Source: a bacterium
Lineage (GTDB): Bacteria > Babelota > Babeliae > Babelales > RVW-14
Reading direction: 5' to 3'
Assembly (NCBI GenBank): GCA_043822925.1
Contig: JBDRBF010000026.1
Span: 1 to 16,965 of the forward strand
DNA: 16,965 nucleotides
Part shown: positions 1,149-11,029 of the stretch, piece by piece
Numbering within the stretch: the stretch's first letter is position 1
Layout of the letters: each line of letters opens with the position of its first letter
The notes under the pieces: model-generated
What the model was told of the DNA's origin: nothing
What the model saw: the letters and a program-made list of their open reading frames with translations, nothing else
The model's database searches: none
Program-made: the position numbers and the translations under genes

Positions 1149-3959
1149 TTACGAGCCTGAGCGGAGTTTCCAGATAATATCAAATGCTTGTTTTGGCGAT
1201 AAGTTATCGATATTTATGTCGTTTAAGATGCGTAACTTTTGTTCTTGTTCCAGTATCGTTCTTTTCAGCTGGTCTTTACTACGCTCTTCCCCCTTCGCCA
1301 AGGCTACGGAGGTCAGGTCGCCTATCGGCTCGTAGCTTTGGGGGACAGATCGAAGGGCAGGATTGGCTATAGTGGGCAGGCTGCTGGGCTGGTCATGTAG
1401 CACTTGCAAAATTTGGGCAGCCCTATTAATAATTGCATCGGGCAGTTGGGCCAGCTTGGCCACATCAAGCCCAAAGCTCCGGTGGGCCACTCCAGGGGCG
1501 ATCGTGTGTAAAAAGTGCAGGTTGACCCCAATTTTTTTGCAGAGCATGTGATAATTTTTTATAGTCGCAAAAGTTTGTTCTAGTTCTGTAAGCTCATGAT
1601 AATGCGTCGCAAAGAGCGTCTTGGCCTGAATAACGGTGACGAGATATTCAATAATTGCTTGGGCCAGTGCTATGCCGTCATGTGTGCTGGTTCCTCGGCC
1701 GACCTCGTCTAAAATAACCAAGCTGTGTTTGGTTGCCTGGGTACAGATCGTCGCCGTTTCTTCCATTTCGACCAAAAATGTACTTTTGCCTTCGGCTAAA
1801 TTATCTGCTGAGCCTATTCTTGTGAAAATACGGTCAAAAATAGGCACGTTTGCGCTGGTAGCAGGTACGAATGAGCCGCATTGGGCCAAGATCGAGATAA
1901 GAGCGACCTGGCGTAAATAAGTCGATTTGCCGCCCATATTGGGTCCGGTTATAAGCATGACTTCTTGGGTGTTATCTAAATTCGTATTATTACCAATAAA
2001 TTGGGTATTATTTGTTGTTTCTATGACGGGGTGCCTGCCAAGCTTAATATTTACGCTGCGTGTGCTATTAAATTGGGGGGCGCAATAATTATTATGATAG
2101 GCCGTGAGCGCAAAACTTAATAACGCGTCTAGATATGCAATAGATTGTGCGGTGTTTCGCAGGGGGGATAAATAACTTTCGACGTCGTCTTTGACCCGTG
2201 TGAAAACTTCGTTCTCGACAACGTCTATCTCGTTTTGGGCTTTAAAGATATCCCGTTCTAGATCTTTTAGTTCTTGGGTTACGTAACGTTTTCTGTTTGC
2301 TAACTTTTGTTGTTCTATATAGTCAGGTGGGACCTGGTCTAAGTTGGGGTTTGTGATCTCGATATAATAGCCTGAAACTCGATTGTAACTAATCTTAAGA
2401 CTATTTATATTTGTGCGAGCACGTTCTTTTTGTTCAAGTTTTAATAATTCTTGTTGGCTGTTTTCTACTAAGTTTCTTAGGTGATCTAATCGATGATCAA
2501 AGCCGTTTTTAATTATGTGCTCTTGGGAGCTATCGTCGTTTAGGCTTATCTCGAGTAATTTAATTAAGTCTGTGAAAATACCCATTTTTTCTTGTAGCGC
2601 TTGGGCCAGCTGCGTTTGGCATGTCGTGCGCAAAAGTTCTTTAATTTCTGGAATAATTATTAAAGATTGTTTGAGCGCTAAATAATCATGTATTTGTGCA
2701 CGTTTAAGTGCAATGCGCCCGATAATGCGCTCCAGATCTGCGATGCTTGATAAATAATTTTCGAGCTTTTGCGTGATATCTATATTTTTATGTAATTGTG
2801 AAACTGTATCTTGCCGGCGCATGATTGCTTGTTCTTGAATTAATGGCCTGAGTAACCATTTTTTGAGCATGCGTGAGCCCATTGCTGTCTTTGCTTTGTC
2901 TATTACAGCAAGTAACGTGTTTTTCCTGCCCGAATCTTGATTGTTCTTAATTATTTCTAAGTTTTTTTGTGTTGCGGGGTCTAAGATTAAATAATCTTCT
3001 GGCTGATAAAACTGTATCGTTTTAAATAGGGGCAGCGCTTTTTCCTGATTTTTTTTTAGATATGTATATAGCAGGTCAAGCGAGCGTGACATACTTGTAT
3101 TATTTTGCAGTATGCTTAATATGTTTGGCGAAAACTGGGCATCAAGCCAGGCTTTTGATATTGGTTGCCCGGCTGCATAGTCACCTGCTGACTGTATTAT
3201 GTTCTGGTTATTATCTGGGGTGTTGTTGTTATTAATAATCGTATTTGTATTGTAATTTGCTGCGTTTGTGTCAGCAAAACTTGTGCAGTAGCCCAGTTTT
3301 TTTAAGTACGTATTAATAGCTCTGGATCCTGAACCAAGTCCCGACTTCGCCAAGGCTTCGCCGGATACGTCAGGATGATAAGAAGAGCTTTTTTGTGTGT
3401 CGTTGCATGCGCTTGGCAGTACAATTTCGTCGGGAAAAAAACGGGCAAGTTCAGCTTCAAACATACGATAATCGCCCGCAGGAATATGGGTGGCAAAAAG
3501 TTGGGCTGTTAAGAGTTCAGTAAATACTAAGCCCCATTCTTGTTGTTCAGGATAAAACGAGAGTAAATATGATGCAGATTTGTCATCAAGCATCGTTGAA
3601 TCTATAAGAGTGCCAGGAGTAAATACGTGCGTGACGCCACGCTGCACTATAGTCCCTGGTTGTGGCTGCGTGAGTTGGTCACAGAGGGCGACTTTAAAGC
3701 CACCAGATATTAATTTTTTAAGATAGTGCTTTACGGCGTGTATGGGGATTCCACAGAGTGGCACATCTTGGCCATTATTTTTGCCACGGGACGTGAGTGC
3801 TATTGCTAAATATGCTGAAGCTGTTTTAGCGTCATCAAAAAAAAGTTCGTAAAAATCCCCGACCTGAAATAAGAGTAGCGTATCTTGGTATTGGTTTTTA
3901 ATATCAAAATACTGTTGCATTAATGGCGTGTTTTTTTCTATTATTTTTTCTGTGTTCAT
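1149..3959 (-). CDS. mutS: DNA mismatch repair protein MutS, with extra inserted segments
   Basis: Motifs TPLMQQY, GDFYELF (mismatch-binding F-x-E), Walker A TGPNMGGKST, DEVGRGTST, FATHY and C-terminal DNLSPKQA. Confidence 0.98.
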   Translation of the reverse strand: MNTEKIIEKNTPLMQQYFDIKNQYQDTLLLFQVGDFYELFFDDAKTASAYLAIALTSRGKNNGQDVPLCGIPIHAVKHYLKKLISGGFKVALCDQLTQPQPGTIVQRGVTHVFTPGTLIDSTMLDDKSASYLLSFYPEQQEWGLVFTELLTAQLFATHIPAGDYRMFEAELARFFPDEIVLPSACNDTQKSSSYHPDVSGEALAKSGLGSGSRAINTYLKKLGYCTSFADTNAANYNTNTIINNNNTPDNNQNIIQSAGDYAAGQPISKAWLDAQFSPNILSILQNNTSMSRSLDLLYTYLKKNQEKALPLFKTIQFYQPEDYLILDPATQKNLEIIKNNQDSGRKNTLLAVIDKAKTAMGSRMLKKWLLRPLIQEQAIMRRQDTVSQLHKNIDITQKLENYLSSIADLERIIGRIALKRAQIHDYLALKQSLIIIPEIKELLRTTCQTQLAQALQEKMGIFTDLIKLLEISLNDDSSQEHIIKNGFDHRLDHLRNLVENSQQELLKLEQKERARTNINSLKISYNRVSGYYIEITNPNLDQVPPDYIEQQKLANRKRYVTQELKDLERDIFKAQNEIDVVENEVFTRVKDDVESYLSPLRNTAQSIAYLDALLSFALTAYHNNYCAPQFNSTRSVNIKLGRHPVIETTNNTQFIGNNTNLDNTQEVMLITGPNMGGKSTYLRQVALISILAQCGSFVPATSANVPIFDRIFTRIGSADNLAEGKSTFLVEMEETATICTQATKHSLVILDEVGRGTSTHDGIALAQAIIEYLVTVIQAKTLFATHYHELTELEQTFATIKNYHMLCKKIGVNLHFLHTIAPGVAHRSFGLDVAKLAQLPDAIINRAAQILQVLHDQPSSLPTIANPALRSVPQSYEPIGDLTSVALAKGEERSKDQLKRTILEQEQKLRILNDINIDNLSPKQAFDIIWKLRSGS
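1289..1357. repeat. Short palindromic element (family B) plus a degenerate inverted partner, inside the mutS 3' end
   Basis: 1289-1312 on the minus strand reads CCTCC-GTA-GCC-TT-GGC-GAA-GGGGG, a hairpin with an internal loop. It shares cttcgccaaggct with 3345-3357. An inverted copy cgtagctttgg[9 nt]cgaaggg lies at 1331-1357. Confidence 0.75.
3323..3381. repeat. Family A palindromic element with a 30-nt family B element nested in its loop, inside mutS
   Basis: Removing 3340-3369 gives tggatcctgaaccaagttcaggatgataa, the same 29-nt length as and 25/29 identical to 11208-11236. Confidence 0.85.
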
Positions 3960-4058: not shown

Positions 4059-4085
4059 AGGCCCTGTGATTTTTTCACAGGGCCT
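4059..4085 (-). terminator. Probable terminator hairpin between the RBR-like gene and mutS
   Basis: 11-bp perfect stem aggccctgtga/tcacagggcct with a 5-nt loop, 36 nt after the stop at 4122. The U-tract is weak. Confidence 0.7.
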
Positions 4086-4121: not shown

Positions 4122-5924
4122 TTACCAGGTAGCGGGATACAGAAATTTAAAATATTTCCATTCTTCTTTATATGCTGGCGGGAATGATATGCTAGCATTG
4201 AATTCTTTATTTGTATCGCCAAGTAACGTTTGAAGCGTCTTGCGAGTTATATTTGTTGTTATTCTGAGCTCTGGAACATCAATAGTAAATTCTTCCCCTT
4301 CAAGTTCTCCACCGTAAAATTGCTTTATTTCCGATTCTACTTTTGCGTTATTGTCTAAAGTTTTTATTGCTTCGGCGAGCTTTTTTGTATATTCGTAGGT
4401 ATATTCTCCTGCGTTGATACCAGGCTTTGGGGCTATTATAATATCTTTATTGGTAACCCATTTTGCTTTCACTGAAAAATCTAATGCTGCTTCTCTGCCA
4501 AAGCGAATGGTAAAAATGGTAGGGCTATTAGGGGCGAGTTGGTTTTTTTTTGATGCATAAATATATCCGTTTCGGCAGGCCCATACATGATGGTAGTAGG
4601 CGCCACCTGTGCGCGTACTACCGCTGCCGCTGGGATTGGGAGTACGTATTTCGTCCGCTTCTCGACATCCACATCCAAAGCAGAATGAGCCATGTTTACA
4701 AGGGGAATTATGCATGATGAGGCAATTGTTGTTCTCATTGTGGTAATCTATGTTGCAATTAGGTTCAGGGCACCGTTGTGTCGTTAAAAAGGTAATTTGT
4801 TCGTCTTTTTCTATATCAGATAGTTTTGGTTTGTTATCTGTTTTATTGCATGCTCCTTGGTGCCAGGGTTCCTGGCAATCTGGACAATATTTTTTATGAC
4901 AGCTTGGGCATTCATATTTGGTGTTACGCGAGATTTCGTGAAAGCCCCGTCCGTTGCCCAAGCTGTAAAATTCTTTACAGTTTGGGGTTGGGCAGCGTCT
5001 AAAATTTTTGTCAGTACTTTTGGCTAAAAGCTTAAGTAAGTTTATTCGTTCTGTTTTTGTTTTGCTGCTATCATCAAGTTCATCAGTTACCACTTTGTTT
5101 AAGTCATCATCTGAAATTGGTTTTTTGCATTGGAGGCATTGTAATTCGTTACGATTTCTTTCTTTGAGAGTCCTTGAAACAGAAGGATCGTAGCAATAAA
5201 TACAAATTTGATTGTGTCCACATGATAGCGAGGGAAAGTCAGATTTAAGTGTTAAGTAGTAGCAGGATCCGCAGTTGTCTGTTTCTAGTTTGGGTAAAAG
5301 TTTAAGGGCGTCTATTCTTTCTTCTTTTGTTTTTTCTTTTCCTCCTTGTATTACTATTTCTTCTTTGCCTTGTCGCATTTGTATATTTGGGAGTCCTCCA
5401 ACAACCCCTTTAGTAATTATTTTCCCCCAATCGTCATCATCAATGAGTTTGTGGCATCCTGGGCATTTTAAGAGCCCTCGGTTAGTAGAATCAAGAGCCT
5501 TCCAAACAGGCCCTTCAACGCCGTTGTATTCATTAATGCAATAAAATTTTTTAGATTCAAGTGCATTGCAGCCACATGCTAATTCAGGAAACATATTTCC
5601 AGGTTTTTGTATCTTGCAAATCGCACAAGTTTTGGGCGCATTTTTCTTTCGTTCTTTTTCTTCCCGGGCTATTCTTTGTTCTTCTTGTTCGCGAGCTATT
5701 TTTTGTTCTTCTTGTTCGCGTTCTATTCTTTCTTCAGCAGTTTCTTTTGGTTTATTTAGATTGTCTTTGACTTCTGCCATCGTAATACTGAGCTCAATTA
5801 ATTTAGCTTTAAGTATGCCTAGGCTTTGCTTTATGTTGTCTATTTTTTTATCTAATGCTATTCCTGAAATGTTGTATACGTTAAAAATACAGATTAGTGT
5901 TAAAATATATAAAATTTTGCGCAT
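4122..5924 (-). CDS. Exported RBR (RING-IBR-RING) E3 ubiquitin ligase-like zinc-finger protein, 600 aa
   Basis: Signal-like N-terminus and coiled coil. Two tandem RING-like units (CAIC..CGC..CPGC; CGSC..CGH..CIYC..CLQC), an IBR-like unit (CPTPNC..CPSC..CPDC..WH..C) and a RING2-like unit (CPEPNC..NCLIMH..C..FCFGC..HHVWAC). Confidence 0.8.
   Translation of the reverse strand: MRKILYILTLICIFNVYNISGIALDKKIDNIKQSLGILKAKLIELSITMAEVKDNLNKPKETAEERIEREQEEQKIAREQEEQRIAREEKERKKNAPKTCAICKIQKPGNMFPELACGCNALESKKFYCINEYNGVEGPVWKALDSTNRGLLKCPGCHKLIDDDDWGKIITKGVVGGLPNIQMRQGKEEIVIQGGKEKTKEERIDALKLLPKLETDNCGSCYYLTLKSDFPSLSCGHNQICIYCYDPSVSRTLKERNRNELQCLQCKKPISDDDLNKVVTDELDDSSKTKTERINLLKLLAKSTDKNFRRCPTPNCKEFYSLGNGRGFHEISRNTKYECPSCHKKYCPDCQEPWHQGACNKTDNKPKLSDIEKDEQITFLTTQRCPEPNCNIDYHNENNNCLIMHNSPCKHGSFCFGCGCREADEIRTPNPSGSGSTRTGGAYYHHVWACRNGYIYASKKNQLAPNSPTIFTIRFGREAALDFSVKAKWVTNKDIIIAPKPGINAGEYTYEYTKKLAEAIKTLDNNAKVESEIKQFYGGELEGEEFTIDVPELRITTNITRKTLQTLLGDTNKEFNASISFPPAYKEEWKYFKFLYPATW
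5668..5730 (-). repeat. 27-bp coding tandem repeat, about 2.3 copies, encoding REQEEQ(K/R)IA
   Basis: gctattctttgttcttcttgttcgcga / gctattttttgttcttcttgttcgcgt / tctattctt. Confidence 0.9.
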
Positions 5925-6112
5925 AGCGGTTCTTTCTTTTTATTAATGTGAAATTGTATTAGTTTTTTTTGCCTGCATGATCATGTTATTGTTTTTTAAT
6001 GAAAGAATTCAATAATTTTTTAATAACAAAAGATTTTTGTGTGATTATAAAGCGCGTGATAAAATTGGCAGAATAAGAGAAATGTGAGCCAAAAAAGTAA
6101 AAAAGAAAGAGA

Positions 6113-6805
6113 GTGAAAACTATGGTGATTACGATTGATGGGCCAGCCGCTAGTGGCAAAAGTACGGTAGCGCAAATACTTGCGCGTGAACTGGGCAGTT
6201 ATTATTTAAATACGGGGTTATTGTACCGGGCGGTTGCGTATATTATAGCGCGTCGTCATGAAAATCCTGATGGGTCTGGGTGTGATTGTTGCATGGGTGA
6301 TATTAAAATAGAAGCACAAGATTTGGACTTTATTGGGCGCATTATGTATGAGTATCGTGATGGTAAGCCGTATGTAATGTACAAAAAAGAGGATATCACG
6401 CAGCATTTATATGATGCACAAATTGGAGATCTTGCGTCTGTTATTAGCGCGACAGCTTTAGTGCGTAACGCGCTTTTGCCGTTGCAGCGAGATATTGCAC
6501 AAAAATATGATATTGTTGCTGATGGCCGAGACTGTGGCACGGTTATATTTCCTGATGCCAGATTTAAATTTTATTTAACTGCTTCTTTGGATGTGCGCGC
6601 AAGCAGGTTGCTTGCAGGGGTGCGATATAATGGAGTGAATGCATCGCTTGACGATATTAAACAGGATTTGGAGATTCGTGATCACCGTGATACGCATCGT
6701 GAAGTTGCGCCGCTTAAAAAACCTGATAACGCAATTTTTGTTGATAATTCAGATATGACTATCGAAGAAACGGTCGCGTATTTTTTACGTATTATTCGTG
6801 AGTGA
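6113..6805 (+). CDS. cmk: Cytidylate kinase (start GTG 6113 or ATG 6122)
   Basis: Motifs ITIDGPAASGKST, NTGLLYRA, DGRDCGTVIFPDA, FYLTAS and RDHRDTHREVAPL. Confidence 0.96.
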   Translation: MKTMVITIDGPAASGKSTVAQILARELGSYYLNTGLLYRAVAYIIARRHENPDGSGCDCCMGDIKIEAQDLDFIGRIMYEYRDGKPYVMYKKEDITQHLYDAQIGDLASVISATALVRNALLPLQRDIAQKYDIVADGRDCGTVIFPDARFKFYLTASLDVRASRLLAGVRYNGVNASLDDIKQDLEIRDHRDTHREVAPLKKPDNAIFVDNSDMTIEETVAYFLRIIRE

Positions 6806-6969
6806 AATGCGTAGGTAAATTATCGGCTCTGAAAAAAATAAAATTTTTAAACGCTTGATTTTGATCTAACGAGATCCGTACGCTTACTGGTATATAAAAT
6901 AAAAGATCTTATGAGTGCGGCTCAGGGTGAGCGCGCGTGATCTTGTTTTTTTACCAGAAGGAGACGGTG

Positions 6970-8337
6970 ATGGTGTTTATGCGTAAAAAATATTTTTTTC
7001 TTCTATTTTTTGGACTACTTGCTTTTGGGCGGGTTTGGTGCACAGAAAACGTACTTCAAGATAAAGTTATAGCGAAAACAAAAGCAGCGTGGTCAGTACT
7101 TGTGTATATCGCCGCAGATAATAATCTTGCACCGTATGCATTATATAACATTAATGATATGTCTGCGGGTATGGTTTCGACAAATGGCTGTAACGTGTTA
7201 GTTCAATGGGATAAGCCGCGTGAAAATAAAACGTGGCGTTATCAAATAACTCCGGGTAGTAAAATTGATGCAGGATCTATATCTTCAGAAATGGGATATA
7301 ATACGGTAAATGAGTTGGTTGCATCTATGAAGTGGGTTGTTACGAATTATCCTGCAGACAAATATGCGCTTATTTTGTGGGATCATGGCAGTGGGATAGC
7401 AGATTTTATGCCGGGGTCAAGAGCGTTTACGCGGGGTATTTTATACGATGATTCACAGCGTACTTGCTTGACGAATCAAGGGCTAACGACGGCACTTGCG
7501 CAAATTAAGGCATTAATTGGGCATAATCTTGATATTCTTGCGACAGATGCGTGTTTAATGGCTATGGCTGAAGTTGCATATCAAGTGAAAGATTCGGTGG
7601 ATCTATTTATTGGTTCTCAGGAAACAATTCCAGGTAACGGGTATTCATATTCTAAGTTTATAAAACCGCTCTCAACTAATCCTGCTGGAACGACGCCATT
7701 ACAGCTTGCGCAATATATAATTAATGGGTATGCGAATTTTTATACTAATACTGAGCCAACGTCAGATTTTACGTTGTCGAGTATAGATGTGACAAAGATA
7801 AGTTCAGTTAAGACAAGCATTGATCTGTTTGTTGCTGCTGTAAATGCGTGTAGTAAGTTGGATGCAAAAGCAACTAAGAATATGATTGTTGCTGCGCGTA
7901 AAGCGACAATTTCTTTTGCTATGCCTGAATACGTAGATTTGTATTCGTTTTATGCAAATGTCTTAAAACAGTTAAAAACGAAGTCTCCAAAATCGGCGCT
8001 TATTTTAGATCAGTATAATAAATATTTGAGACCAAAACCAAAAAAACCAAAAAAGCCAGCGTCAAAGCCAAAGCCAAAGCCAAAACCAGCGCCAAAACCA
8101 ACAGTAACATCAGTTAAAGCATATAAAGCGGCGCTTGAAGATTTAAAGCTTGCGGCACAAAATGGAATAAACCAAGTCTTAAACGTTGTGGCGCAAAATT
8201 CGACCGGGCCTGTATATTCAGGGGTTGGTGGCGTTTCGATTTATTATCCAAGATTTGGATCTATTCATAGTTCTTATCCTAAAACATTGTTTGCTAAGAA
8301 CACAGCCTGGAGTAAGTTTATTTTGGCATATCGATAA
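6970..8337 (+). CDS. Exported clostripain-family (peptidase C11) cysteine protease
   Basis: Motifs LVYIAADNNL, catalytic His in WDHGSG, catalytic Cys in DACLM, GSQE and GVSIYYP, plus a signal peptide. An aaggag RBS at 6958-6963 favours ATG 6970 over the track's 6937. Confidence 0.92.
   Translation: MVFMRKKYFFLLFFGLLAFGRVWCTENVLQDKVIAKTKAAWSVLVYIAADNNLAPYALYNINDMSAGMVSTNGCNVLVQWDKPRENKTWRYQITPGSKIDAGSISSEMGYNTVNELVASMKWVVTNYPADKYALILWDHGSGIADFMPGSRAFTRGILYDDSQRTCLTNQGLTTALAQIKALIGHNLDILATDACLMAMAEVAYQVKDSVDLFIGSQETIPGNGYSYSKFIKPLSTNPAGTTPLQLAQYIINGYANFYTNTEPTSDFTLSSIDVTKISSVKTSIDLFVAAVNACSKLDAKATKNMIVAARKATISFAMPEYVDLYSFYANVLKQLKTKSPKSALILDQYNKYLRPKPKKPKKPASKPKPKPKPAPKPTVTSVKAYKAALEDLKLAAQNGINQVLNVVAQNSTGPVYSGVGGVSIYYPRFGSIHSSYPKTLFAKNTAWSKFILAYR
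8032..8100 (+). repeat. Lys/Pro low-complexity coding repeat in clostripain
   Basis: ccaaaa/aagcca units encoding PKPKKPKKPASKPKPKPKPAPKP. Confidence 0.85.
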
Positions 8338-8422: not shown

Positions 8423-8634
8423 AATGTTGTGAGATTAAAAAATATTGCGAGTTTATAATTTTTCGGTTGTTAACTTCGCAAGTTCGCTGCGTTCTGATTT
8501 TTCTAGAAACGCTGTCGCAACAATAGCATTATCTTTGAGCTTGTCAGATGTCACGGTCAGGCCGTTGCTGGTAAAATCAAGATAGGGCGAATCGATTTGG
8601 TACGGGTCTCCGGCCAGAATAACTTTGGTGCCTT
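8390..8634 (-). repeat. Direct repeat copy 1: last 59 codons of phoH, stop, 3' UTR and terminator (startless phoH fragment)
   Basis: 245 bp matching 9457-9702 with 7 substitutions and 1 indel. The phoH stop equivalent is at 8453-8455. Confidence 0.97.
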
Positions 8635-9010
8635 ATTTTATAACTTTGTTTTTAACGAAATTAGAAATTTTATTTGCCAAATCAATTGCTTCAATAAGAT
8701 CCTTTTGATTCACATGAAAAGAATCATTTGGGTATCGTGAATTGAAGCCATAAGGATCTAAGTATTGGCATGCTTTTTGAAGTAAAGCGAACTCCACATC
8801 AAGCTTTGTACAGCCATCCAAAAGCATGCTTAAATCGTGGGTCTTTGGAATTGCCTTTCCAAGAAAAACAAAAAATGTTTTAAGCGATTTTTCTGCACAT
8901 TGATGAGTAAGGTAGATTGCAGGATCGATTGTTTCGTCATCACATATTGATTTTGTAGCCAATTTCAAATCAGCCGATGCTTTTTGCTCCCAATCTTTAA
9001 TCCCTGGCAT
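8633..9010 (-). CDS. HEPN domain protein (toxin-type partner of an MNT-HEPN pair)
   Basis: Motifs W..KA.ADL, HQCAEKSLK, KTHDL and SRYP. Its start overlaps the end of the upstream MNT gene. Confidence 0.92.
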   Translation of the reverse strand: MPGIKDWEQKASADLKLATKSICDDETIDPAIYLTHQCAEKSLKTFFVFLGKAIPKTHDLSMLLDGCTKLDVEFALLQKACQYLDPYGFNSRYPNDSFHVNQKDLIEAIDLANKISNFVKNKVIK

Positions 9011-9317
9011 AAATAACCTTGCCTTTGGTTTTTATCTCATAGGTACTTGAGCTTGGATCTTGAGCATATTTATCAAATTCTTCTTTGGTAAAGACAATCA
9101 CATTTTTGGGAATTTTTAATCCTAGTAATACCTCAAAGGCTGTGTATCCCCTTTTGATAACTCTTTCGTTGGAAGATTCTACTATAATTAATATATCAAA
9201 TGTACTATCTTCGTTCTGGGTACCCAAAGCATAGTCGCCATATAAATAAATTTGCAATGGTTTGTAAGCTTTAACAAGCCGTTTTATAGCTTCATCAATA
9301 GTAGTTTTTGTTACCAT
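8997..9317 (-). CDS. Minimal nucleotidyltransferase (MNT) domain protein with a degenerate catalytic motif
   Basis: P..IYLYGxYA.G...EDSxxD pattern, C-terminal G.VIY, 106 aa, gaggg RBS, paired with HEPN. Confidence 0.9.
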   Translation of the reverse strand: MVTKTTIDEAIKRLVKAYKPLQIYLYGDYALGTQNEDSTFDILIIVESSNERVIKRGYTAFEVLLGLKIPKNVIVFTKEEFDKYAQDPSSSTYEIKTKGKVIYARD

Positions 9318-9456: not shown

Positions 9457-9702
9457 AAGAGGGGCTCGGCCAGCCGAAGCCCCTCTTTGTAATGTTGTGA
9501 GATTAAAAAATATTGCGAGTTTATAATTTTTCGGTTGTTAACTTCGCAAGTTCGCTGCGTTCTGATTTTTCTAGAAACGCTGTCGCAACGATAGAATTAT
9601 CTTTAAGCTTGTCAGATGTTACGGTAAGCCCGTTACTGGTAAAATCAAGATAGGGCGAATCGATTTGGTACGGGTCTCCGGCCAGAATAACTTTGGTGCC
9701 TT
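9457..9702 (-). repeat. Direct repeat copy 2: the functional phoH 3' end plus a truncated, bulged terminator (9457-9487)
   Basis: 246 bp matching 8390-8634. The hairpin has an extra A (gccgaagcccc) and lacks the outer stem bases and tail. Confidence 0.97.
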
Positions 9703-11029
9703 CGCCCGCTCGGCTGACGAGTGTTTTTACTTCATGGGGGGTTAAGTTTTGGACTTCGTCTATAAACACAAACTGGTTTGGTATTGAGCGGCCACGCATG
9801 TATGTGATTGCTTCTAGGCTCAAGATCCCGCGTTGTTGGAGTTGTTCTATGCGTTTGTCTACGTTCATAAATTGAGGCTTGTGGTGATCATCTTTGTTCT
9901 TGTTTCGGTCTCGATCTCGTTGCCCATGTTGTTCTCCACCTCTATGATCATGTTTTTTTGAGCGGTGACGTGAGCGTTTTCTTTCTTCGTGCATGCCGGG
10001 AAAATCTCCATGTTCATGGTCTATTTGGCTTAAGATAAAATCAAGATTGTCTTGCACCGGTTGCATCCAGTAGTGTAATTTTGCTTGCAGGTCGCCAGGT
10101 AGGTAGCCAATATCGGCGCCAAGCGCGACAACCGGGCGAGCTACTAAGAATTTGCGATATGCTTTTTCTATCATTACTTTATATAAACCGGCCAGCAGTG
10201 TTAAAAAAGTTTTACCGGTTCCGGCTGGTCCAAGTAATGTTACCAGTTTTATGCTGTCATCCATGAGTAAATCAAGCGTCATAAGTTGTTGAATGTTTTT
10301 TGCGTGAAAACTATTCATGACGGTGATTGGGGGAATGTCTTTAAAATTTTGGCCGCCTAGATAGCGTACAAGGCGTGTGTTTTCAGGATTATTTTCACTT
10401 TCAAGAATTATAAATTCGTTTAAGCATAAGTCTTGGGGGTCTACGATTGAGCCAATTTTTTTGACTGACAGAGTCTTCATGTCTTGTGCTGGCAAAGCCA
10501 GGCGTCTCCAGCCTTTAAAGAAGTCGTCATAACTGACCAGGCCCTTGGTATAATCTTCCGTGTGTATGCCCATAACGTCTGCTTTGACGCGCATGTCTAT
10601 ATCTTTGGTGACCAGCGTGACGGTGCAGTTTTGTTGCATGAGGTCTTTGGCTGTTTGGATAATTAAGTTGTCTTTAGCGGCCAGCAGGTCTCCAGAAAAA
10701 TCGACATTTGTTGGTGTTGGAAATACTTTTATTATGGTTTCTTGTCCGTTAATTTGTACCGGTACCCCCTGTAATAAACTGCCTTTCTGGCGTAGTTCGT
10801 CTAGTTTACGAATAGATTCACGGGCGTTTCGGCTGCGTTCATCTGTGCCGCGTTTAAAAGAGTCCAGCTCTTCAAGCACAACAAACGGTATGCCAATAAC
10901 GACCCCTTTAAAGCTAAAAAAAGCATGGGGGTCGTGTAACAAAATATTTGTGTCTAAAATAAATATACGGTTAAGCCGTATTGGACAGTTTTGGTCTTTA
11001 TTTGTATCTAGGTCTGATTTGTTTGCCAT
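9521..11029 (-). CDS. phoH: PIN-PhoH fusion (PhoH2-like) ATPase
   Basis: N-terminal PIN domain (ILDTNILL, VLEELD, DNLI, VTKD). PhoH motifs GPAGTGKT, IGYLPG, YMRGRS, DEVQN and GDPYQID. aaaggag RBS. Confidence 0.95.
   Translation of the reverse strand: MANKSDLDTNKDQNCPIRLNRIFILDTNILLHDPHAFFSFKGVVIGIPFVVLEELDSFKRGTDERSRNARESIRKLDELRQKGSLLQGVPVQINGQETIIKVFPTPTNVDFSGDLLAAKDNLIIQTAKDLMQQNCTVTLVTKDIDMRVKADVMGIHTEDYTKGLVSYDDFFKGWRRLALPAQDMKTLSVKKIGSIVDPQDLCLNEFIILESENNPENTRLVRYLGGQNFKDIPPITVMNSFHAKNIQQLMTLDLLMDDSIKLVTLLGPAGTGKTFLTLLAGLYKVMIEKAYRKFLVARPVVALGADIGYLPGDLQAKLHYWMQPVQDNLDFILSQIDHEHGDFPGMHEERKRSRHRSKKHDHRGGEQHGQRDRDRNKNKDDHHKPQFMNVDKRIEQLQQRGILSLEAITYMRGRSIPNQFVFIDEVQNLTPHEVKTLVSRAGEGTKVILAGDPYQIDSPYLDFTSNGLTVTSDKLKDNSIVATAFLEKSERSELAKLTTEKL

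Follow-up and report, generated by a model that had tools for sequence, protein, structure and literature searches.

Whether a bacterium can carry a true member of the RING1-IBR-RING2 (RBR) class of ubiquitin ligases, otherwise eukaryotic, is the question raised by one open reading frame (ORF) on contig JBDRBF010000026.1 of the bacterial assembly GCA_043822925.1 (GTDB lineage Babelota; Babeliae; Babelales; RVW-14), a genome discussed here among the Dependentiae. The complete contig, 16,965 nucleotides in length, is the window analysed. In a sequence-only reading of this window, the product of the ORF, hereafter P0001, had been proposed to be an exported RBR-type E3 ligase, in which a signal peptide and a coiled coil precede Cys/His clusters in the order RING-like, RING-like, IBR-like and RING2-like, with an unrelated domain at the C-terminus. 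All four clusters were found where they had been described, the resemblance goes well beyond chance, and profile and structure searches support P0001 as a genuine RING1-IBR-RING2 protein with homology to the eukaryotic RBRs. A known enzyme class is thus represented by a homologue in a new host domain, with an architecture that is also new.

Domain architecture and homology to RBR ligases

The sequence evidence starts from the IBR domain. The comparison with Pfam by HMMER that had been suggested for P0001 recovered PF01485 over residues 301–358 (E 3e-10; 40.5 bits against a gathering cut-off of 24.3), and the eight ligands of this domain (C311, C316, C339, C342, C347, C350, H355 and C359) form a canonical C6HC set with the spacing C-x4-C-x22-C-x2-C-x4-C-x2-C-x4-H-x3-C. 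Besides IBR, no Pfam family fell convincingly below E≤1 on the whole protein, and the Pfam RING models gave no report on RING1 at that threshold. Searched with phmmer against all PDB chains, P0001 returned six hits at E≤1. Two of these were significant (4e-5 and 5.3e-5); both are the RBR of HOIP (RNF31), in alignments that run from RING1 through IBR to RING2. A profile made from five subfamily sequences placed the HOIP RBR at E 3.5e-11 (profile positions 211–428) and ARIH2 at 0.004, and matched RING1 to the RING1 domains of HOIP (7v8f, 1.9e-5) and RNF144A (1wim, 1.8e-4) as well as to TRIM RINGs. The RING1 ligands themselves (C218, C221, C235, H237, C241, C244, C263 and C266) make up a canonical C3HC4 cross-brace.

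Upstream of RING1, the first RING-like cluster, here called RING-like A, was present as read, and its nature was corrected by direct comparison: it duplicates RING1 in a degenerate form (BLASTP E 3e-10, 35% identity). Among its Cys and His residues (C100, C103, C117, C119, C129, C154, C157 and H158) a Cys takes the place of the His ligand, while Glu132 stands in for the sixth Cys; AlphaFold confidence (pLDDT) over this region is low, at 34–57.

Supplied with an alignment of 90 sequences, AlphaFold modelled P0001 at a mean pLDDT of 69.9, compared with 31.4 when no alignment was given. Confidence was about 96 over RING1, about 80 over IBR, 70–83 over RING2 and 86–95 in parts of the C-terminal domain, with model residues 332–349 under 50. 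A Foldseek comparison of the AlphaFold model with the PDB yielded 30 matches at E≤1e-3, and the matches listed, down to rank 49, were all RBR ligases (HOIP, ARIH2, HHARI, HOIL-1, RNF216 and Parkin), in agreement with what the sequence-only reading had expected of such a check. VIA-align matches to RING1 had Z scores of 7.5–7.9 and rmsd values of 2.4–3.8 overall, among them RNF216 (Z 7.9, rmsd 2.4 over 78 residues) and HOIP RING1 bound to UBE2L3 (Z 7.5, rmsd 2.9 over 86 residues); over RING1-IBR of HOIL-1L, ARIH2 and Parkin, Z ranged from 6 to 7.4. Together with the Pfam IBR match and the HOIP profile match, the Foldseek result supports the proposed RBR-type architecture.

RING2 is the divergent element of the three, and its Cys and His residues are C385, C390, C401, H405, C409, H411, C415, C418, C420, H445, H446 and C450. 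Cys401, which had been assigned to the catalytic position by eye, stands in register with the HOIP active-site Cys in both the phmmer and the profile alignments. All 12 bacterial RBRs that were aligned share it, opposite the catalytic Cys of GGC[ND]HMTC, and a Cys is kept at this position in all five subfamily sequences, at an overall identity of just 35–46%. The second zinc site of RING2 would probably be closed by the invariant H445, H446 and C450, residues that already form part of the start of the conserved C-terminal domain, where the motif HH-x-W-A-C-R-N-G is kept in the subfamily.

Two residues beyond Cys401, where RBRs of the canonical type have His, P0001 has Ile403, as had been remarked from the sequence; this position (Cys+2) is His in seven canonical sequences and I, M, W, W and W in the five subfamily sequences. 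A regular-expression reading of 24 distinct Dependentiae RBR-like ORFs, extracted by script, found His at Cys+2 in 16 and no His in seven, with one unresolved; the seven include ORFs that are otherwise canonical-looking, and His loss is thus common in the Dependentiae RBR radiation. The sequence-only reading had taken the missing His as a sign that activity may be altered or lost. The absence stands, and as a sign of lost activity it is not disqualifying: the Cys-His-Glu/Gln triad is not universal among RBRs and mechanisms differ, HOIP H887A still forms the thioester, and RNF216 is active without an active-site His (PMC7458406; this and the three other papers cited are represented here by excerpts of their text). 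His loss therefore lowers confidence in ordinary aminolysis and not in RBR membership.

The C-terminal domain had been read as unrelated to the RBR part, and residues 452–600 indeed matched no Pfam or NCBIfam family and had no Atlas neighbour above a score of 0.76 (TM≤0.31). Fold matches to the cyanophycin synthetase N-domain, an RNA polymerase alpha-like domain and MscS-type proteins (Z≤6.6) were set aside as a common alpha/beta arrangement. The domain is conserved in P0002–P0004 and P0091, and among the 261 phylum genomes it was found in one, that of P0001 itself; a match in genome G239 (E 0.004) belongs to a PpiD/SurA-like chaperone and was rejected as a false positive. When iterated over ~220 sequences, a hidden Markov model of the domain picked up, with its last 50–75 positions, P0019, P0085 and a single Dependentiae ORF.

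A terminal strand-helix motif (a hydrophobic strand, then ..LQ..L..AN..F), resembling the end of the P0001 C-terminal domain, was observed in the tails of P0005, P0012, P0019, P0040 and P0085 and in ORFs of loci L021, L026 and L032. Comparison of the C-terminal domain with five canonical RBR tails by hhalign gave a probability of 91% over 26 columns, with tails chosen post hoc, and a regular expression for the motif, written after seeing the data, hit 6 of 101 RBR tails against a shuffled mean of 0.5. A strand-helix unit common to the ends of Dependentiae RBRs is accordingly put forward as a lead, drawn from sequence comparison.

Table 1 Features of P0001, its gene and its surroundings (positions in the window unless a contig is named)
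Feature	Position	Strand	Remarks
Whole ORF (P0001)	4122..5924	minus	600 aa plus stop, ATG start
Signal-peptide-like N-terminus MRKILYILTLICIFNVYNISG, residues 1-21	5862..5924	minus	read from sequence
Helical region, residues 24-95	5640..5855	minus	heptad-spaced hydrophobics 28-56, then E/R/K-rich repeat
RING-like A, residues 100-175	5400..5627	minus	degenerate RING1 duplicate, 7/8 ligand positions
RING1, residues 218-266	5127..5273	minus	C3HC4 pattern
IBR, residues 301-359	4848..5024	minus	C6HC; whole-genome scan places it at 4851-5024
Divergent RING2, residues 385-450	4575..4772	minus	aligned to HOIP RING2 and canonical bacterial RBR RING2
Cys401 codon	4722..4724	minus	catalytic-position cysteine
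C-terminal alpha/beta domain, residues 452-600	4125..4571	minus	no known family
Promoter-like site CTGCCA-16-TATAAT	6044..6071	minus	in the 188-bp spacer to cmk; 10/12 matches, weak
MutS	1149-3959	minus	neighbour of RBR gene
Cytidylate kinase (cmk)	6113-6805	plus	neighbour, 188-bp divergent spacer to RBR gene
Clostripain-family (C11) peptidase	6937-8337	plus	near RBR gene
HEPN domain protein (125 aa) and nucleotidyltransferase (106 aa)	8633-9317	minus	overlapping small ORFs
PIN-PhoH fusion protein	9521-11029	minus	near RBR gene
Paralog P0002, 709 aa	contig 2, L009:1369-3498	minus	44-55% identity over matched parts
Second RBR, canonical, 528 aa	contig 66, L002:133-1719	plus	GGCDHMTC; same genome

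Genomic setting, distribution and origin

The RBR gene belongs to the bacterial genome and is not contaminating eukaryotic DNA. Its flanking genes are the bacterial mutS and cmk, from which it is separated by short spacers, and it has no introns. Its GC content (0.379) matches that of the window (0.386), and the threonyl-tRNA synthetase (ThrRS) of the window shares 60–70% identity with proteins whose names refer to candidate division TM6, Candidatus Dependentiae or Candidatus Babeliales. Almost identical copies of the RBR gene were seen in runs from several other studies (groundwater and biofilm metagenomes). In the independent groundwater run X2, one contig over 3692–4429 joins the start of mutS to the end of the gene with five differences in the spacer, a second (4405–4767) matches the window with 0 differences, and a third (4805–6126) joins the gene to the start of cmk with one synonymous difference; in run X5 both junctions, on the mutS side and on the cmk side, are likewise bridged. 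An artefact, in which eukaryotic host DNA or a chimeric assembly had entered a bacterial bin, might be suspected from the otherwise eukaryotic range of RBRs and from the draft state of the genome (1.52 Mb in 86 contigs, the window being contig 26, with an estimated 92% completeness and 3.2% contamination). Against it stand the bacterial flanks on the same contig and the bridged junctions just described, the paralog that the genome carries on a different contig, and RBR genes elsewhere in the phylum, some of them in single-contig genomes, which together bring its probability close to nil. Within the mutS-RBR spacer, positions 4070–4074 read AAAAA in one independent run, on one contig of depth 4.9, as against TTTTT in the window.

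The RBR gene does not stand alone in its phylum. Of 261 Dependentiae genomes, 45 (from 31 of the 145 genera) have an IBR match above the Pfam cut-off, including 31 of the 189 genomes that are at least 90% complete, compared with 0 of 14 control genomes, and a single Dependentiae genome can have up to 11–12 IBR matches. Tandem clusters of IBR ORFs were seen at G242:C1:585-601 kb, G194:C2:76-83 kb, G201:C1:986-989 kb and G053:C1:572-574 kb, an arrangement that suggests local expansion of RBR genes. Among the 24 Dependentiae RBR ORFs, 20 have an uncharged N-terminal hydrophobic run of at least 10 residues. The genome of P0001 contributes two further members. In the paralog P0002, two RING-like A repeats replace the canonical RING1, the C-terminal tail is longer and the IBR ligand pattern is altered; the canonical RBR of contig 66 begins with a long, conserved helical domain that may be membrane-associated, and its IBR is without most of its cysteines. 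Orthologues of the contig-66 gene are present in two other genomes of the family and at six named loci of metagenome-assembled genomes (MAGs), one of them labelled Candidatus Babeliales. An IBR match on contig 84 of this genome was discarded as the zinc lid of an adenylate kinase.

An exhaustive HMMER scan of 1.84 billion representatives collected 90 proteins at E≤1e-3, and the RBR and the C-terminal domain occurred together, besides the query, only in P0002, P0003 (2e-34) and P0004 (1e-16). Judged by these searches, the window gene is a member of a rare divergent subfamily with four lineages among the 1.84 billion representatives. Scans with patterns from the subfamily alignment (102 matches in genome contigs, 257 in metagenomes and 78 in viral sequences) confirmed no relative, and a word-indexed search with the whole protein returned the query alone, its 8000 candidates probably having been swamped by the low-complexity helix. 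Public labels deserve caution in this group: the RBR cores of L012/L013 are identical to those of L008 (G022)/L007 (G013), so that genomes assigned to the family of the P0001 genome bear public titles such as 'uncultured Pseudomonadota bacterium' or 'bacterium', and record labels are therefore unreliable here. A separate observation concerns L017, a 13.6-kb contig (GC 0.47) of a MAG labelled Rhodobacterales, where a 128-aa ORF (L017:1832-2218, plus strand) consists of IBR and a canonical RING2 (GCNHMTC) only and the neighbouring ORFs are short and unconvincing; this contig may be mis-binned or non-bacterial DNA.

To place the subfamily, a quick maximum-likelihood tree was computed from 98 RBR cores over 208 columns. 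The subfamily was monophyletic (SH-aLRT 95) and sat on long branches, as did many other sequences. The tree put it beside 30 rows, the named ones being fungi, an amoeba and a vertebrate RNF31-like protein, with 23 of the 23 rows known from Dependentiae genomes on the opposite side of a split supported by SH-aLRT 91 only. When the subfamily was constrained to the Dependentiae side, the log-likelihood was 13.6 above that of the free search (p-AU 0.674); the constrained tree having scored better, a separate eukaryotic acquisition of the subfamily was dropped. A single bacterial RBR radiation that includes the subfamily is not rejected by the AU test of these core alignments, and a eukaryotic source for the whole Dependentiae radiation is plausible.

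The excerpted review of 29 October 2026 states of the HECT, RBR, RCR and RZ ligases that counterparts in bacteria 'have not yet been identified' (PMC13720258), which agrees with the earlier remark that full RBRs are not among the described bacterial E3 effectors. Literature searches gave no paper in which RBR or IBR is connected with Dependentiae, TM6, Babela or Vermiphilus (supplements of genome papers may list such domains), no bacterial subject among 11 of the 12 papers that contain PF01485 as judged by titles and the opening lines of abstracts, and 'bacterial RBR' in the rubrerythrin sense only. Already known is that databases label some such genes as IBR domain-containing proteins; P0024, for example, is MFC1842380.1, 'IBR domain-containing protein [Candidatus Dependentiae bacterium]' at NCBI. 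What the window subfamily adds is the doubled RING1, an active site without the His, and a C-terminal domain that had not been described.

Around the gene, the promoter-like site in the cmk spacer is considered weak because the region has fewer such sites than its shuffles (4 versus 7.1), a GA-rich stretch precedes the ATG, and a terminator scan near the RBR gene found none. One metatranscriptome gave a single 170-base contig on cmk and, on the ORF, just 18- and 24-base pieces of one contig, taken as spurious. Further window genes encode, besides ThrRS, a metallophosphoesterase, a beta-lactamase-fold protein and a GNAT protein, and the HEPN and nucleotidyltransferase ORFs have the layout of a HEPN/MNT toxin-antitoxin pair.

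Proposed export and function, and alternatives

Known members of the Dependentiae are residents of protist cells. The N-terminus of P0001 is signal-like, with a basic n-region and an uncharged hydrophobic run (14 residues by a crude script measure); N-termini of similar type are found in P0002, P0003 and P0091, and a plausible ISG cleavage motif was read by eye in P0001 and P0002. Cys12 (5889-5891), in the middle of the hydrophobic segment, is kept in all four full-length subfamily sequences (P0001, P0002, P0003 and P0091), and a lipoprotein reading was rejected on inspection by eye, the residues preceding it making no lipobox. In the helical region that follows, hydrophobic residues at 28, 31, 35, 38, 42, 45, 49, 52 and 56 keep an unbroken 3–4 spacing, so that the coiled coil proposed earlier is retained in its heptad-like signature, as a reading of the sequence.

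The genome encodes three secretins and three T2SSE ATPases above cut-offs, which fit type II secretion or type IV pili, and VirB4 was not found in it. DsbA and DsbB were not found in the genome either, and a Cys-rich zinc protein may therefore cross the periplasm unoxidised. In the excerpts of two Dependentiae papers, a type II system is reported for all TM6 genomes examined (PMC4776705), and in Chromulinavorax signal peptides are reported on 44% of proteins, including 78% of ankyrin proteins (PMC6561590). From the signal-like N-terminus, the type II-type genes and these papers, we infer that P0001 would be exported as a Sec-dependent secreted effector.

We consider it rather probable, though well short of secure, that P0001 is a secreted Dependentiae effector that acts as an RBR ubiquitin ligase inside the eukaryotic host. 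In the sequence of events that we envisage, the Sec signal peptide would carry the protein across the inner membrane and a type II-type secretin pathway or vesicles would release it; RING1, possibly with its degenerate duplicate, would bind host E2~ubiquitin, and ubiquitin would be handed to RING2 Cys401 as a thioester. From there it would be transferred to a target picked by the C-terminal domain fused to RING2, much as the LDD of HOIP positions the acceptor, while the N-terminal heptad helix may oligomerise or tether the protein. Ligase activity, E2 binding, thioester formation and the choice of target are thus predicted from an architecture and a genomic setting that were observed directly. 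Should P0001 prove active, it would show that a eukaryotic E3 class that depends on cysteine can be adopted wholesale by intracellular bacteria; small, soluble, naturally minimal RBRs would be at hand for mechanistic work, and protist-host manipulation by the barely studied Dependentiae would become more accessible.

Several observations weigh against this account. At RING2, Pfam IBR, IBR_1 and IBR_2 made no detection at E≤0.01, the first zinc site is one canonical Cys short (H405 or H411 may substitute for it), P0003 has still fewer ligands than P0001, and the catalytic His is absent from every subfamily member; the Cys at the catalytic position could have been recruited as a zinc ligand instead. 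P0002 matches no Pfam family at E≤0.1, which fits fast divergence and possibly relaxed constraint. All VIA-align Z values are below 8, middling on the scale of the tool and short of its threshold for a clear match, and the alignment supplied to AlphaFold was itself drawn from RBR relatives. The structures therefore agree with the sequence evidence and add to it, but not as an independent line. The signal peptide of P0001 is a heuristic reading, and the account leaves out both the host itself and the route by which a Sec/type II substrate would reach its cytosol. Finally, the search for an E2 (UQ_con) domain, negative in the 92%-complete genome, had no positive control and was silent in every genome. 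Within that limit, the lack of an E2 match speaks for dependence on the host and so for the account, as does the ubiquitin domain that was likewise looked for and not found in this genome: the RBR would need host E1, E2 and ubiquitin.

Much of the evidence on RING2 also bears on a pseudo-ligase of RBR fold, which would bind host E2~ubiquitin or ubiquitin through RING1/IBR without transfer. Such a protein would block host ubiquitination by acting as a decoy or trap, or it would be a scaffold, with the real function residing in its C-terminal domain. Loss of His at Cys+2 in five of five subfamily sequences, a RING2 unseen by Pfam and lacking one canonical zinc ligand, the altered IBR ligands and missing Pfam match of P0002, and the long branches of the subfamily all favour such a protein. 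Retention of the catalytic-position Cys in five of five sequences at such low identity argues the other way, as do the activity of RNF216 without the His (PMC7458406) and the commonness of His loss among Dependentiae RBR ORFs (seven of 24), and we regard the pseudo-ligase as unlikely, albeit the most serious of the competing explanations. The His-less active site could alternatively belong to an active RBR whose chemistry or cargo differs, through a different ubiquitin-like modifier or hydroxyl or non-protein acceptors, with the active site and the private C-terminal domain defining the acceptor. HOIL-1 transfers to hydroxyl or non-protein acceptors, and HOIP, the closest solved relative, has an acceptor-selecting C-terminal extension; the fusion of the C-terminal domain to RING2, whose zinc site HH-x-W-A-C-R-N-G probably completes, points in the same direction, as does the variation in triad and mechanism among RBRs (PMC7458406). 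Set against these points, the C-terminal domain yields generic alpha/beta matches only, and we hold altered chemistry to be very improbable.

A different kind of alternative concerns location: an uncleaved signal anchor would hold the RBR on the envelope, in the periplasm or on vesicles, where it would act at the bacterium-host interface. Residues 7–97 weakly resemble ATP synthase subunit b, over its membrane helix and the long helix next to it (E 0.099), the cleavage context is poor in P0003 and P0091 (IYP before the helix, by eye), and in the excerpted account of Chromulinavorax infection putative outer membrane vesicles bud early (PMC6561590). A hydrophobic run of 14 residues is, however, rather little to span a membrane and has the usual length of the h-region in signal peptides, the plausible ISG motif is present in P0001 and P0002, and a periplasmic enzyme would be parted from E2 and ubiquitin, which the genome seemingly does not encode; we therefore hold anchoring to be distinctly unlikely. 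The secreted ligase remains our preferred reading. It can be extended to a bolder and, in our estimate, doubtful proposal: that the Dependentiae hold the first bacterial family of true eukaryotic transthiolating E3 (RBR) homologues, and that the window subfamily is a HOIP-like, His-less offshoot whose private C-terminal domain, joined to RING2 by way of the second zinc site, would be an acceptor-selecting platform. In a protist host, the linkage made would then be unusual, or the target would be something other than a lysine or a protein.

Comparison with known ubiquitin ligases

HOIP (RNF31) is the best solved relative of P0001 by sequence and its top Foldseek match, and in both proteins a C-terminal domain directly follows RING2. 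In HOIP this extension, the LDD, selects and positions the acceptor. The two also differ: identity is about 15–20% in structural alignments, and the PUB, NZF and UBA domains of HOIP were not detected in P0001 by Pfam. Fold searches gave generic alpha/beta matches for the P0001 C-terminal domain and no LDD among them. The HOIP active-site His, H887, corresponds to Ile in P0001, which adds a signal-like N-terminus and a second RING1-like domain. With the Ariadne proteins (HHARI/ARIH1 and ARIH2) and Parkin, P0001 has in common the three-domain order and the zinc-ligand patterns, and over RING1-IBR, VIA-align gave Z 7.0 with rmsd 5.5 over 135 for ARIH2 and Z 6.0 with rmsd 3.7 over 131 for Parkin. 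P0001 differs from them in having no Ariadne domain and no Ubl or RING0 by Pfam, no Cys-x-His motif, and a longer gap in RING2 from the catalytic Cys to the next ligand. RNF216 resembles P0001 in lacking the triad His and is its best RING1 match by VIA-align, and it is active according to the excerpted text (PMC7458406); it is a eukaryotic cytosolic protein, and the link to P0001 seen here is the RBR fold only.

Within the phylum, the canonical Dependentiae RBRs (such as the contig-66 ORF and MFC1842380.1) have, like P0001, a signal-like N-terminus followed by an RBR. Most of them carry GGC-x-H-M-T-C, and Pfam detects both IBR and RING2, which is not the case for P0001; its subfamily is set apart by the extra RING1-like domain, the missing His and the conserved 150-aa C-terminal domain. 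With the bacterial E3 effectors (RING/U-box, the HECT-like SopA and NleL, and other transthiolating ligases), P0001 would share a presumed purpose and the use of host E1, E2 and ubiquitin (PMC13720258). Its putative Sec-type signal contrasts with type III and type IV effectors; no VirB4 was found, and type III secretion was not searched for. The most basic difference is one of descent: whereas the known bacterial transthiolating ligases are, in the excerpts of the same review, not homologous to the eukaryotic classes (PMC13720258), P0001 is a true RBR homologue.

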